NCBI GenBank assembly: GCA_964460805.1
Contig: CAYWPU010000001.1
Location: 38,624 to 102,623, forward strand
DNA: 64,000 nt
Direction: 5' to 3'
Source: an uncultured Candidatus Saccharibacteria bacterium
GTDB lineage: Bacteria > Patescibacteriota > Minisyncoccia > Phycocordibacterales > JACOZG01
Positions 2,764 to 61,847 of the stretch are shown one piece after another (position 1 is the stretch's first letter; each line of letters opens with the position of its first letter). The position numbers and the translations under genes were made by a program. The notes beneath the pieces are model-generated. The model was not told where the DNA came from. It worked only from the letters and a program-made list of their open reading frames with translations, and made no database searches.

Positions 2764-3045
2764 GTTGTGATAATTATAACAAGAAAAGAAAAAGCCCGCT
2801 TCCCTACCACTGCATAACGAGATGCAATAGCTGAGAAGCGGGCCGAGACGGGAGTGTGCGAGCCGGACTAGAATGCGCCAACCGCCGGCTTGCTACTGGT
2901 ATAGAGCCACAGGAGCCCAACCACCAGCATTACCGAGAACATGCTGTACACAACCACTCGCCTGTCCATATATTTCCTCCCTGAAAACAATGAACTAACC
3001 TCCCCCAACCCCCATTATAGCAAATGGGTAGAGTTTGTCAAGAGG

Positions 3046-9192: not shown

Positions 9193-9225
9193 CATGGTAA
9201 CTAAAACCGCCCTCTCGGGGCGGTT

Positions 9226-9468
9226 TTAGTTAGCTTTCTTAATCAGCTTCGCCAGTCGCGCTTTCTTCCTCGCCGCGTTATTCTTCTTGATGATCCCCCG
9301 CTTGGCGGCTTTGTCTATGGCCTGGTAAGCGGCTGGGAGGAGTTGCGCAGACGGCGCTTTAAGGAAATCCTTGGTAGCCTCGCGCATCGCCTTTTGCCGG
9401 CGAGCGTTATAGACCCGCTTGCGGGCCGAGCTCCGGATCGCCTTCTTGGCTGATTTGATAATTGCCAT
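9226..9468 (-). CDS. rpsT: 30S ribosomal protein S20
   Basis: MAIIKSAKKAIRSSARKRVYNARRQKAMREATK is typical of S20. Confidence 0.85.
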   Translation of the reverse strand: MAIIKSAKKAIRSSARKRVYNARRQKAMREATKDFLKAPSAQLLPAAYQAIDKAAKRGIIKKNNAARKKARLAKLIKKAN

Positions 9469-20629: not shown

Positions 20630-20796
20630 GGCTTATTTCTCCTATTCTGCCCTGAGGGCGGAAAAGCCACTTTTGACCTAACTAACCCTAGTATAGCAAA
20701 TTGCGGTTTTCTTGTCAAGGGGGTAAAAATGGCCCAAAATAAAGCTAAGTTATGCGTTGTTTTGGGGCAAGAAAAAAGCTAGAGTTAGGGTAAGTC

Positions 20797-22491
20797 ATGC
20801 TCACGTTCAACGATACCAGAGATAAGCGCGTGGACGAACTGCATAGTCAGGAGGCGGAGAGCCTTGCTCAGATGCTCTCCAGCAAATACGACCTCCCCTA
20901 CATTGATCTCTCTAAATTCCCCATCAACACAGACGCGCTGAAGGTCCTACCAGAGGAGGAAGCGCGGCGGGCTAATCTTGCGGCTTTTAAGATCAATGGG
21001 AAAAATTTATTTCTCGTTACTATGTCTCCGGCAAAAGAGGAGACCAAAGCGGCCCTGCAAGACCTGCGGGAGAAGAATTACCAGCTCCACGTCTACCTCG
21101 GCTCGGAGGCTAGTCTCACCCGCGCTTGGGAGCGCTACCCGGAGATCTCGCGCTCGCGGCGGACGGAGGCCGGCGTGATTGATATCAGCGACGAGGCAAT
21201 TGCCGAGTTTGCCAAGCAGATCAGCGATGTAGACAGCTTGAACAAAGCCTTTAGCACCGAGGGCGTGGCGGCGCTCTCCTCCGGCGGTGTCTCTAATCTC
21301 TTGGAGGTGCTACTCGCCGGCGCGATTGTGACCGACGCCTCAGACATCCACATTGAGCCGGAGACTGAGCGCGTGCGCTTGCGCTTCCGCCTAGATGGCG
21401 TGCTACACGATGTGAGCTTCCTAGAGCCTCGCCTCTACCGCCACATGATCTCGCGGATCAAATTACTCTCGGGATTAAAATTAAATGTGCAGAAGTCAGC
21501 CCAAGACGGGCGGCTCAGTATCAGACTGGAAGATAACGATATTGAGATCAGAACGTCTATCCTGCCAGGTGCCTACGGAGAATCTGTCGTCTTGCGTATC
21601 TTGAATCCTAAAGCGATTGCGGTCACTTTTGAAACATTAGGTATAGAGCCAGCGCTCTTTGAGATCGTGAAGAAGCAGATCACCAAGCCAAACGGCGCGA
21701 TCTTCCTCACCGGCCCCACTGGCTCGGGTAAAACAACCACGCTTTACTCTTTTCTCCGCTATATCTCCACTGGCGAGAACAAGACGATCACGATAGAAGA
21801 TCCAATAGAGTATCACTTGAAAGGGATCAGCCAGACGCAGGTTAACCCAGATAAAAATTACACTTTTCTCACCGGCCTCAGATCAGCTCTGCGCCAAGAT
21901 CCAGATATCATCATGGTCGGCGAGATCCGAGATAAAGAAACGGCAAAAATTGCGATCAACGCCTCGCTCACCGGCCACCTGGTCTTCTCTACTCTGCACA
22001 CCAATAACGCCGCCGGCACGATCCCGCGATTGATAGACTTAGACGTGAATCCGAAAATTATTGATTCGGCGCTTAACTTAGCAATGGCGCAGAGATTGCT
22101 CAGGAATCTTTGTCGCGCTTGCAAGCAAGAGAGCACACCCACAGCAGAAGAGCAGAAGTTGATAGACGGCGTGGTGGCGTCTATCAAGGAGAAGCGGCCA
22201 GATCTCGCTCCCACGCAGACGAGCAAGATCTGGCGGGCGGCAGAGTCCGGCTGTGCGGCCTGCAACCACACGGGTTACAAGGGTCGGCAGGGTATCTTTG
22301 AGGCTGTGCTGATAGACGAGCTGGTGGCACCGCTACTGCTCAGTAACCCGAGCGAGCGGGAAATAAAAATCGCCGCCAAAGGGCAGCGCATACTGGATAT
22401 GCGGCAAGATGGTATGCTAAAGGTGCTCGCCGGCGAGACAGCACTGGAGGAACTGGCCCGCGTGGTGGATATAAACGAGGAGATTATCTAG
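20797..22491 (+). CDS. pilB: type IV pilus assembly ATPase PilB (GspE family)
   Basis: Walker A GPTGSGKTTT, Asp box and His box regions, tetracysteine CRAC...CAAC motif. 564 aa. Confidence 0.85.
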   Translation: MLTFNDTRDKRVDELHSQEAESLAQMLSSKYDLPYIDLSKFPINTDALKVLPEEEARRANLAAFKINGKNLFLVTMSPAKEETKAALQDLREKNYQLHVYLGSEASLTRAWERYPEISRSRRTEAGVIDISDEAIAEFAKQISDVDSLNKAFSTEGVAALSSGGVSNLLEVLLAGAIVTDASDIHIEPETERVRLRFRLDGVLHDVSFLEPRLYRHMISRIKLLSGLKLNVQKSAQDGRLSIRLEDNDIEIRTSILPGAYGESVVLRILNPKAIAVTFETLGIEPALFEIVKKQITKPNGAIFLTGPTGSGKTTTLYSFLRYISTGENKTITIEDPIEYHLKGISQTQVNPDKNYTFLTGLRSALRQDPDIIMVGEIRDKETAKIAINASLTGHLVFSTLHTNNAAGTIPRLIDLDVNPKIIDSALNLAMAQRLLRNLCRACKQESTPTAEEQKLIDGVVASIKEKRPDLAPTQTSKIWRAAESGCAACNHTGYKGRQGIFEAVLIDELVAPLLLSNPSEREIKIAAKGQRILDMRQDGMLKVLAGETALEELARVVDINEEII

Positions 22492-22509
22492 ATCCCTGAC
22501 AATCGAGAA

Positions 22510-22662
22510 CATAAACCTCTAAGCAAGCCTCCAACGCAAGCGCTGGAGTGAGGTAAGGCCGCAAGGATAGAGCAAGCAAGGTGACCAAAGTCGCCAAACT
22601 GTCTCGTCCTCTTGGCCAAACCCGTTTAAACCCGGAAGAGCTTAGTTGCTTAGAGGTTTATG
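22510..22662. repeat. intergenic element closed by a perfect 17-bp inverted repeat (candidate structured RNA or MITE-like element)
   Basis: CATAAACCTCTAAGCAA at 22510-22526 and its exact reverse complement TTGCTTAGAGGTTTATG at 22646-22662 enclose 119 nt. The interior is rich in GCAA/GNRA-type hairpins (CTCCA-ACGCAAGCGC-TGGAG, CC-GCAA-GG). Confidence 0.4.
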
Positions 22663-22718
22663 GTCTGGATTAATGCTAATATAAAGATCTTGGGGCATGC
22701 TAGCATATAACGTTATAA

Positions 22719-23729
22719 ATGTCAAGAGGTAAAGAAACGAGCGGCGGAGACTGGTTCCTGGATAGCGCCCTGCGCCCAAGCGCTTGGGGAGACTATATTG
22801 GCCAGAAAAATATCAAAGAAAACTTGCAAATCCTCCTGCAAGCGGCTAAGGACCGCGCCCAAGCGCCGGAACATCTCCTCTTCTACGGACCTCCGGGGCT
22901 GGGTAAGACGACTCTCGCCCACCTGATCGCCAGAGAGATCGGCGCACAACTCAAGATCACCTCCGGTCCGGCCATTGAGCGCGTGGGCGATCTCGCTTCC
23001 ATCCTCACCAATCTCTCAGCTGGCGATATGCTCTTTATTGATGAAGTGCATCGGCTAAACAAAATGATTGAAGAAGTGCTCTACCCGGCCATGGAGAGCG
23101 GCAAGCTTAATATTGTGATCGGCAAGGGCCCGGGCGCGCGAGTTATCCAACTGGACCTGCCACCCTTCACTCTAGTGGCCGCCACCACGCGACCGGCGCT
23201 CCTCTCGGCGCCGCTCCGCTCGCGCTTCTCCGGCGGCACCTTCCGGCTCGAGTTCTACTCTGATGCCGAGATCGGACAGATCATCCAGCGCTCGGCCCAG
23301 ATCCTGGGCGTGGAGCTAGACCAAGAAGCGGCGCTGGAGATCGCACGGCGGAGCCGCTTTACCCCCCGGATGGCCAACCAGTTCCTCAAGCGTTGCCGAG
23401 ACCTGGCGCAACTCCGGAATCAGATTATTAATAAAACCGTGGCGCGCGAGGCCCTCACGCTAATGGGTATTGATGAGCTTGGTCTCAATGAGAGCGACCG
23501 CAAGATCCTCTCGACGCTTATTGAGAAGTTCAACGGCGGTCCAGTTGGTCTGGGCACGCTGGCCACGGCCACTCATGAGGAAGAAGCGACAATTGAGGAG
23601 GTCCACGAGCCTTATCTAATCCAGCTTGGAATGCTGGAGCGCACAGCGCGCGGCCGCGTGGCTACCAAGCGCGCTTACGAACATCTGGGCTATGATTATC
23701 CGGCGGATAAACAGGGTAAATTGATCTAA
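22719..23729 (+). CDS. ruvB: Holliday junction DNA helicase RuvB
   Basis: Walker A GPPGLGKTT, Walker B MLFIDEVHRL, sensor regions. 336 aa. Confidence 0.9.
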   Translation: MSRGKETSGGDWFLDSALRPSAWGDYIGQKNIKENLQILLQAAKDRAQAPEHLLFYGPPGLGKTTLAHLIAREIGAQLKITSGPAIERVGDLASILTNLSAGDMLFIDEVHRLNKMIEEVLYPAMESGKLNIVIGKGPGARVIQLDLPPFTLVAATTRPALLSAPLRSRFSGGTFRLEFYSDAEIGQIIQRSAQILGVELDQEAALEIARRSRFTPRMANQFLKRCRDLAQLRNQIINKTVAREALTLMGIDELGLNESDRKILSTLIEKFNGGPVGLGTLATATHEEEATIEEVHEPYLIQLGMLERTARGRVATKRAYEHLGYDYPADKQGKLI

Positions 23730-23738
23730 ATCTAAAAC

Positions 23739-24215
23739 ATGAAGATATTGGGCATTGATCCCGGCTACGATCGCCTCGGCGTGGCAGTACTGGAATCTGG
23801 AACAAAGCAACCAGAATTAATCTATTCTGATTGCTTAACCAGCAGCAAAAAAACAGAATTTGCTAAGAGATTATCTGAACTGGGTGCAAAACTAGAAAAA
23901 ATTATTGCAGCACATCAACCAGAACAACTCGCGCTGGAGACACTCTTCTTTGCCAAGAACCGCAAAACAGCGATGCTGGTAAGCGAGACGCGCGGCATGA
24001 TTTTATATCTAGCCGGGAAAAATAATTTACCGGTGGTGGAGGTCTCGCCCGGGAGCGTCAAGCTCGCGATCACCGGCTATGGTCAGGCTAGCAAAGAGCA
24101 AATCAGCGCCATGCTCCCGCGGCTGCTAAAGATCCAAAAAGTGATTAAACACGATGATGAATACGACGCGATTGCTGTGGCCCTAACAGCTTTATCCACA
24201 GTTAAGCTAAAATAG
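23739..24215 (+). CDS. ruvC: crossover junction endodeoxyribonuclease RuvC
   Basis: MKILGIDPGYDRLGVAVLE N-terminus with catalytic Asp. Confidence 0.9.
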   Translation: MKILGIDPGYDRLGVAVLESGTKQPELIYSDCLTSSKKTEFAKRLSELGAKLEKIIAAHQPEQLALETLFFAKNRKTAMLVSETRGMILYLAGKNNLPVVEVSPGSVKLAITGYGQASKEQISAMLPRLLKIQKVIKHDDEYDAIAVALTALSTVKLK

Positions 24216-24396: not shown

Positions 24397-24403
24397 TTCC
24401 TAA

Positions 24404-24440
24404 AACTAAAACTCCCTGCCTAGGCGGGGAGTTTTAGTTT
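24404..24440. terminator. bidirectional rho-independent terminator between convergent genes
   Basis: AAACTAAAACTCCC / GGGAGTTTTAGTTT ~14-bp stem around a TGCCTAGGC loop, with A/T runs on both sides. Sits between the acidic mini-ORF (+) and tyrS (-). Confidence 0.7.
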
Positions 24441-25709: not shown

Positions 25710-25738
25710 TTGACAAACAGACCCAGTGGGTATATAAT
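25710..25738 (+). promoter_or_regulatory. near-consensus sigma70-type promoter
   Basis: TTGACA (25710-25715), a 17-nt spacer, TATAAT (25733-25738). About 70 nt upstream of the 25808 ORF, which has AAGGAG 8 nt before its ATG. Confidence 0.6.
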
Positions 25739-32976: not shown

Positions 32977-33004
32977 TATTTTTTAAATTTAGAGAAAGAA
33001 AAAA

Positions 33005-33030
33005 GCGCATCCAATGGATGCGCTTTTTTG
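33005..33030. terminator. bidirectional rho-independent terminator
   Basis: GCGCATCC-AAT-GGATGCGC hairpin with an A-run before and a T-run after. Between yidC (+) and the 33032..33400 gene (-). Confidence 0.75.
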
Positions 33031-33400: not shown

Positions 33401-33544
33401 AGATCAATTGTTAACTAATTTAAGTATAGCAAATTACAGTCTGCTTGTCAAGGGTTTCTACAATACAACACAATTGTCAATCTTGACTTGCCAGAATAGC
33501 CTTATTTCTAGCCACTATTAGAACATATTTATCTAGAAACTTGC

Positions 33545-59165: not shown

Positions 59166-59204
59166 AACTGTTCCATGTTATCATAAAATGTTGGAGTTTC
59201 AAGA

Positions 59205-61796: not shown

Positions 61797-61847
61797 GTGT
61801 GCCCTCGCATCCTAGCATTTTTTCAGTATAATGTCATTTGCGACAAC

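Follow-up and report, generated by a model that had tools for sequence, protein, structure and literature searches.

The question raised by this locus is why a long inverted repeat should stand in the short gap between pilB and ruvB in an uncultured member of the Patescibacteria. The stretch of DNA analysed (hereafter the window) comprises 64 kb of contig CAYWPU010000001.1, and within it CATAAACCTCTAAGCAA at 22510-22526 is matched by its exact reverse complement TTGCTTAGAGGTTTATG at 22646-22662, a perfect 17-bp inverted repeat enclosing 119 nt. A previous sequence-only reading had described these arms, their positions and the length of the interior, and all are borne out, as are the two flanking genes that it named: the left neighbour, an open reading frame (ORF) at 20797-22491 (plus strand), encodes a PilB/GspE-type ATPase, with PF05157 and PF00437 carried in orthologous loci, and the right neighbour at 22719-23729 (plus strand) encodes RuvB. 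In a repeat search the pairing grows to 26-nt arms (22501-22526 and 22646-22671) with 92% complementarity, the longest inverted repeat within the window. The answer proposed here is that the repeat is helix P1, which closes a structured RNA of 171 nt encoded by a single-copy gene of its own. This gene reads on the minus strand from 22671 to 22501, convergent with pilB and divergent from ruvB, and its product has the shape of a four-way junction that is under strong selection as RNA. It is almost certain that the minus strand here carries a genuine structured RNA gene not classified before.

The first line of evidence is its distribution. RuvB similarity places the window in the Parcubacteria group of the Patescibacteria, with Candidatus Nomurabacteria and Vogelbacteria as named relatives. 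Ten contigs were anchored on RuvB proteins 73-90% identical to that of the window; all ten preserve the order pilB, gap, ruvB, and all ten contain the RNA. When the gaps are aligned, the element is far more conserved than the sequence surrounding it, and its hairpins vary in compensatory fashion. For the four relatives L002-L005, identity to the window is 86-96% across the RNA, compared with 74-80% for ruvB DNA, 39-54% for ruvB third codon positions and 48-81% for the leader that separates the promoter -10 element from P1.

The invariant positions supplied a 22-base pattern, with which one genome per species of GTDB and the JGI metagenomes were scanned, giving 16 and 13 matches respectively. 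The first covariance model (R1) upholds 13 of the genome matches and 10 of the metagenome matches at 100-171 bits, and those that are named all come from metagenome-assembled genomes (MAGs) of Patescibacteria. The remaining genome matches, in Rhizobiales, Chitinophagaceae and Erysipelotrichaceae, have no support from any model and are attributed to chance, as are three metagenome matches (L027, L031 and L037) that no model confirms. Three RuvB loci picked regardless of the pattern (L038-L040) all contain the RNA, at 125-139 bits, yet none of them fits the pattern, CCAUCCU and CGGGUUG being examples of the departures. The pattern is therefore too strict, and the scans understate a family that is much more widespread in the clade than they show. 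In total, the set comprises 24 distinct homologues, taken from MAGs of Parcubacteria and from metagenomes. The window core itself (22501-22671) scores 170.8 bits with R1 and 192.8 bits with a second model, R2, described below.

This distribution also bears on the idea, raised in the sequence-only reading, that the arms are the terminal inverted repeats of a remnant resembling a miniature inverted-repeat transposable element (MITE). The perfect 17-bp repeats, extended to 26 bp, are what such an element would offer. However, CATAAACCTCTAAGCAA has only its two sites in the window even when up to three mismatches are allowed (chance expectation 0.16 matches), and neither R1 nor R2 finds a second copy of the RNA in the window or in any other locus. 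Genomes with RuvB proteins only 69-90% identical carry the element at one and the same syntenic place, no flanking direct repeat is visible in the gap alignments, and phage records contain no match to the RNA. Furthermore, the arms change compensatorily, as the strands of an RNA helix do. A mobile origin accordingly has a negligible likelihood.

The second line of evidence is covariation, and here the folding of homologous intergenic regions that had been proposed as a check was carried out; the element is conserved and all four of its helices are supported. RNAalifold, run on a structure-blind MAFFT alignment of 20 sequences, recovers P1, most of P3 and part of P4, with changes on both sides in 22 of 42 pairs. 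When the variable segments of each member are folded alone, P2 (4-8 bp), P4 (8-10 bp) and the tip of P3 form in essentially all 24 sequences, although the letters of these segments are unrelated between members. The full structure of 65 pairs was written on eight close sequences and converted into model R2, with which all 24 distinct members were aligned. This alignment is fitted to the structure, whereas the RNAalifold run and the separate folding of segments are independent of that fit. In it, 93.0% of cells hold a standard pair, compared with 75.9% in shuffles, and none of 500 shuffles reaches the observed value. Changes on both sides are found in 44 of the 65 pairs (shuffled mean 31.2), distributed as 17 of 26 in P1, 6 of 7 in P2, 13 of 24 in P3 and 8 of 8 in P4. 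The covariation score is 0.502, against 0.180 for shuffled alignments and at most 0.125 when partners are slid by one to three columns.

The third line of evidence concerns the strand. Among the 24 aligned members, G.U and U.G cells number 157 and A.C and C.A cells only 38; the G.U pairs of the minus strand would become A.C mismatches if read on the plus strand, and therefore the functional strand is the minus strand and selection acts on RNA, not on duplex DNA. The minus strand folds at -78.4 kcal/mol (z -8.5) into the closing stem and three hairpins, with the minimum free energy structure accounting for 14% of the ensemble. The plus strand fold is weaker, at -66.3 kcal/mol (z -6.2). The sequence-only reading had suggested a structured small RNA, a proposal that covariation now strongly supports, but had read it on the strand opposite to the one indicated by the G.U excess, the fold and the promoter. 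A 43-residue ORF with a TTG start on the minus strand (22619-22488) was considered as a coding alternative and was rejected, as close homologues carry non-triplet indels and the AUG in P1 is lost in other members.

These observations leave little room for a plus-strand element, whether a 5' leader, an attenuator or a riboswitch of ruvB, co-transcribed from pilB. Such an element would lie suitably upstream of ruvB, and its fold does beat shuffles. Against it stand the strand-specific mismatches and the weaker fold just described, together with a conserved promoter on the minus strand and, in about seven loci, a minus-strand terminator directly after P1. In about seven loci, pilB is also separated from the element by a terminator hairpin that has T and A runs. 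The earlier suggestion of an attenuator, or of a riboregulator of ruvB, thus meets an RNA that is antisense to ruvB, has a promoter of its own and, in some lineages, its own terminator. A plus-strand function is very improbable.

In the description that follows, an RNA position is obtained by subtracting the window coordinate from 22672, and all features lie on the minus strand. P1 is a 26-bp helix with 91.7% of cells paired, formed by RNA 1-26 (22646-22671), which holds the right-hand arm of the inverted repeat, and RNA 146-171 (22501-22526), which holds the left-hand arm. The hairpin P2 (RNA 28-45, 22627-22644; UAAGCUC-UUCC-GGGUUUA with three G.U pairs) pairs RNA 28-34 with 39-45; it folds in every member despite differing sequences (96.2% of cells paired), and is weak (-1.6 to -9.9 kcal/mol) and rich in G.U. 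P3 is a long, irregular hairpin of 73 nt and about 30 rungs (RNA 49-121, 22551-22623), and the same pairs were obtained by RNAalifold from the structure-blind alignment. P4 (RNA 124-143, 22529-22548; CUCCAGCG-CUUG-CGUUGGAG) pairs RNA 124-131 with 136-143, has 97.4% of cells paired and forms 8-10 bp in every member. The central segments between P1 and the apical arm P3 are 22 and 24 nt long, and the unpaired segments are short, at 2-4 nt.

The invariant or nearly invariant positions fall into three clusters. The first is the base of P3, GGGU/ACCU, with the adjoining AAC linkers. The second is an internal loop of P3, made of AGGACG on the 5' side (RNA 62-67, 22605-22610) and CUAUCCU on the 3' side (RNA 102-108, 22564-22570), above which the tip of P3 varies. 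The third is the outer end of P1, where the pairs U3-A, C4-G and A6-U are invariant. Both GGACG and CUAUCCU are without exception in the 24 pattern-selected members; this invariance is partly imposed, as the search pattern demanded GGACG, and the same applies to part of the overall invariance. In the three members found without the pattern, GGACG is kept in all, CCAUCCU replaces CUAUCCU in two, and AUCCU and most other positions are kept. Attempts to read ACCUAAC as an 11-nt tetraloop receptor, or the P3 loop as a K-turn or a loop-E motif, all failed on inspection.

Several of the short hairpins reported for the interior can now be placed in this structure. CTCCA..TGGAG and GAC-CAAA-GTC are both real, being the complements of P4 and of the P3 tip, but had been read on the wrong strand; at CC-GCAA-GG the conserved structure has no hairpin. 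A separate observation is that CUAAGC occurs twice in tandem at 22638-22655 (minus strand, RNA 18-35), with one copy in the 5' strand of P1 and the other in J1/2 and the 5' strand of P2. The GCUUAG of the P1 3' strand could pair with either copy in members of the window type and the L011 type, but not in L008, L009, L017 or L024. This duplication could be a structural switch, comparable to the rearrangement of 6S RNA, or could be due to chance, and is not used as evidence here.

The RNA gene has a recognizable promoter. In the window it consists of the -35 hexamer TTGACA (22725-22720), a 17-nt spacer and a TG-extended -10 element TAGCAT (22702-22697), with 10 of 12 consensus positions plus the TG (22697-22725, minus strand). 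This TTGACA-17-TGcTAGCAT is the sole sigma-70-like site in 22300-22900, and is among the approximately 14 best consensus matches in the 64 kb, alongside the promoters of tRNA genes. Most loci have CTTGACAT-N16/17-TATGCTAnnnT upstream of the RNA on the same strand, and the group comprising L011/L013 and L012/L015 has a TATAAT-type promoter instead. In the window, the -35 hexamer shares bases with the ruvB start codon (22719), but in L008 it is clear of ruvB; conservation of the -35 element is therefore not a by-product of ruvB codons. The predicted transcription start, judged from the promoter position, is about 22690, which would give a poorly conserved 5' leader at 22672-22690. The gap from the -10 element to P1 ranges from 7 to about 60 nt among loci, and where it is 7 nt (L021 and L022), transcription is predicted to begin exactly at base 1 of P1.

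The palindrome ATGCTAGCAT at 22697-22706, which the sequence-only reading had placed just upstream of ruvB, is present and proves to be the extended -10 region of the RNA promoter; its palindromy as such is not conserved among the aligned loci. The palindrome also reads towards ruvB as a TG-extended -10 element (TGCTAGCAT), which would yield a nearly leaderless ruvB mRNA starting about 6 nt before the ATG, and L003-L005 retain a TAGCAT or TAACAT hexamer on the ruvB strand, including where the palindrome itself is lost. It is possible that the RNA and ruvB share this -10 element bidirectionally.

Hairpin and U-run terminators are found 5-55 nt after P1 in seven loci (L011, L012, L013, L015, L017, L023 and L025). 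In the clade of the window, no terminator lies between P1 and pilB, whose stop codon in the window is 9 nt beyond the P1 3' strand, and this arrangement implies that the 3' end of the RNA is set by processing or by P1 itself, or else results from read-through. At 22388-22362 (minus strand), antisense inside pilB and 131 nt downstream of the RNA, there is also a hairpin with a U-run that resembles a terminator. It occurs in the window, more weakly in L002 and in analogous form in L022, is absent elsewhere and follows the pilB codons, and is probably a chance by-product of these codons.

It remains to ask what kind of RNA this is. The search of Rfam proposed earlier was run: Rfam 15 at gathering score identifies only 14 tRNAs in the whole window and none of its families at the RNA, and a permissive scan (E ≤10) of the 401 nt from 22400 to 22800 returns only chance fragments of snoRNA and PhrS, with E >5. 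No family matched, 6S and signal recognition particle (SRP) RNAs included. ARAGORN detects no tRNA or tmRNA gene in 22300-22900, and literature searches yielded no description of this RNA, no report of a 6S RNA for the Patescibacteria and no lineage-specific non-coding RNA for the Parcubacteria or for the candidate phyla radiation (CPR) to which they belong. The RNA is therefore best described as a new family within a known general category, that of stable bacterial small RNAs with a defined structure; it may be a 6S variant that has diverged strongly.

Comparison with 6S RNA (SsrS; RF00013) provides the most specific functional proposal, namely that the RNA acts as a decoy for RNA polymerase. 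Canonical 6S RNAs are 160-200 nt long, and their two ends pair with each other to form a long closing stem (PMC8414754); 6S candidates do not necessarily have a purely single-stranded central region, and 6S RNA is expected to escape homology searches (PMC4227106). The RNA described here resembles them in its length of 171 nt, in a closing stem of 26 bp formed by the ends with small mismatches, in a central region between two long helical arms with a hairpin (P4) 3' of the centre, and in an apical arm with small internal loops. It likewise has a single-copy gene, a strong sigma-70-type promoter and hairpin tips that are poorly conserved in sequence. Judged by analogy from size and arm layout, the probability that it acts like 6S RNA is estimated at roughly 0.3.

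Were this the case, the RNA would be a stable decoy occupying the housekeeping RNA polymerase holoenzyme, with P1 mimicking downstream DNA and P3 mimicking upstream DNA. The weak, G.U-rich P2 would open to form the template side, and the unusually conserved 5' strand of P1 would serve as the template of a short product RNA that frees the enzyme. Strong conservation of that strand would fit such a templated product.

Several observations weigh against this proposal. The large and mostly single-stranded 5' central bulge, where product RNA synthesis starts in 6S RNA, is not found; its place is taken by P2, which covaries and closes the centre into a four-way junction, and which RNA polymerase would therefore have to melt. 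RF00013 gives no match, either at gathering score over the window or at E ≤10 over 22400-22800. The apical arm contains invariant nucleotides, as does the outer end of P1 (U3, C4 and A6 with the bases they pair with); these are atypical of 6S RNA and suggest a sequence-specific protein partner, and the constant position beside ruvB could point to a local role. The 6S-like option offered in the sequence-only reading thus survives in size, closing stem and the P4/P3 arm layout but not in the open 5' bulge or in a match to the family model, and is possible as an analogy.

Other known RNAs offer less complete parallels. Like 4.5S RNA, the RNA component of SRP (RF00169 and RF01854), this RNA is small and stable with paired ends, but it does not have the conserved GNRA-capped helix 8 or the symmetric and asymmetric loops found there. 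An SRP-like identity, previously suggested from the CCGGAAG segment, is contradicted by the lack of an Rfam SRP match and by the variable hairpin tips, and CCGGAAG itself is the non-conserved loop of P2. Retron msr/msd RNA was likewise considered and rejected, as the neighbours are pilB and ruvB and no reverse transcriptase domain occurs among the called genes of the examined loci. Bacterial Y RNAs (YrlA), which are bound by Rsr or Ro60, share a long stem formed by the ends and a cloverleaf-like junction of several helices (stem, hairpin, hairpin, hairpin, stem). However, P4 has no T-loop-like motif (its loops include CUUG, UUCG, UGCAU and others), the middle arm of this RNA is long and bears a conserved loop, no Rfam match was obtained, and no Ro/TROVE gene was seen nearby. 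Ms1 RNA of the Actinobacteria is a 6S-related RNA of about 300 nt that binds the RNA polymerase core, and it has no sequence or model similarity to this RNA. The two are alike in their circumstances: Ms1 has been described as confined to one lineage, a group in which no canonical 6S RNA was found, and as recognized by synteny and not by sequence (PMC9130861). Orphan small RNA motifs (e.g. Weinberg et al. 2010, PMC2864571) are similarly supported by covariation, independently transcribed, confined to one lineage and without assigned function, but the described ones are included in Rfam 15, which gives no match, and this RNA comes from Parcubacteria of the CPR. For the Parcubacteria, the absence of both ffh and ffs has been reported (PMC4508563), a further point against an SRP-like identity.

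The location of the invariant nucleotides leads to another explanation, in which the RNA is a stable scaffold for a lineage-specific protein partner, the two forming a new ribonucleoprotein that has nothing to do with RNA polymerase. Three elements would be recognized by the protein, namely the invariant loop AGGACG/CUAUCCU, the foot of P3 (GGGU/ACCU) and the invariant outer pairs of P1, and the only role of P2, P4 and the tip of P3 would be to hold the geometry. Invariance is indeed concentrated in internal loops and helix ends, with hairpin tips free to vary; the unpaired segments are too short for antisense targeting; and the variable length of the leader suggests processing of the ends as in other stable RNAs. 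The absence of any similarity in Rfam is also consistent with a new particle. However, no candidate gene for the partner travels with the RNA, as its neighbours are housekeeping genes (pilB, ruvB, yebC and ruvC) in a block that is conserved whole, and the explanation is a class of explanations and not one mechanism. A scaffold of this type comes close to having an even chance.

The genomic neighbourhood invites a different reading, that of a local regulator of ruvB or pilB. In each of the 27 loci found, the RNA and ruvB diverge, and in 26 the RNA converges with pilB; in the exception (L009), a hypothetical gene stands in place of pilB and ruvC and yebC lie on the other side, and the RNA still adjoins ruvB. 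With the RNA promoter back to back with the ruvB start, its firing could interfere with ruvB transcription, and in lineages without a terminator read-through would be antisense to the 3' end of pilB. The overlap of the -35 hexamer with the ruvB ATG and the lack of a terminator before pilB in the window clade would both fit. In a more exotic version, the four-way RNA junction would mimic a Holliday junction and titrate RuvA or RuvB; however, these proteins bind B-form DNA and not A-form RNA. A four-helix structure of 171 nt with invariant loops also exceeds the needs of promoter interference, the promoter in other lineages lies at least 60 nt from the ruvB start (L008), and a terminator there shields pilB. 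Finally, the wider block polA-tsaE-pilB-RNA-ruvB-(yebC)-ruvC-trpS-pbp is syntenic throughout, and the linkage of the RNA to ruvB may therefore be historical. Local regulation is considered improbable.

It is also conceivable, at rather less than even odds, that the RNA, instead of being a 6S analogue or a local regulator, represents a new class of stable four-way-junction RNA, near-universal in a large Parcubacteria clade of the CPR, with a partner or mechanism unlike that of any known bacterial RNA. It might, for instance, be the RNA part of a novel ribonucleoprotein in these SRP-less, minimal episymbionts. In its most exotic form, the idea becomes a Holliday-junction-shaped RNA acting on the RuvAB machinery encoded next to it.

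Some further features of the window were observed in passing. In the window, ruvC follows ruvB directly (region 23729-24215), and all related loci have yebC (PF20772/PF01709) between the two genes. The corresponding gap of relatives often contains one to three extra genes, among them a PemK toxin pair in L039, and judging from these gene orders the ruvB-ruvC interval appears to be a hot spot for insertion and deletion. Between a small ORF and a convergent tRNA-synthetase gene lies a 19-bp near-perfect palindrome (24403-24440, AAACTAAAACTCCCTGCCT / AGGCGGGGAGTTTTAGTTT), which looks like a bidirectional terminator; similar hairpins are present at 9198-9232 and 32999-33029.

The strong promoters of the window share an extended consensus, CCCTTGACAA-N-TTTGCTATACT, with a TG-extended -10 element, and there are about 14 such sites in the 64 kb. 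Examples are found at 20690-20718, 33423-33451, 59175-59202 and 61809-61837 on the minus strand and at 25710-25738 on the plus strand, those at 59175-59202 and 61809-61837 being just upstream of tRNA genes. A perfect promoter, TTGACA-16-TGcTATAAT with 12 of 12 consensus positions, occurs in the region 2790-3041 (minus strand) directly after a tRNA gene and ahead of a tiny ORF, MDRRVVVYSMFSVMLVVGLLWLYTSSKPAVGAF. The predicted product of this ORF is hydrophobic and is probably a membrane peptide, and the ORF is followed by a strong hairpin terminator (GCCCGCTTC...GAAGCGGGC TTTTTCTTTT).

The CPR, or Patescibacteria, make up a large share of bacterial diversity and have tiny genomes, and its members cannot be grown alone. 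A conserved 171-nt RNA with strong predicted expression that is retained in such reduced genomes, and whose conservation exceeds that of the adjacent ruvB and pilB DNA, likely has an important role. The covariance model can be used for annotating the RNA across published MAGs, and the promoter and terminator data supply concrete predicted ends for the transcript. If the RNA is a true 6S equivalent, it would extend the known drift of 6S architecture as far as a closed four-way centre, and would fill a gap in the transcription control of these bacteria. If it is not, it would mark an unknown ribonucleoprotein in organisms that are reported to have lost even the SRP.

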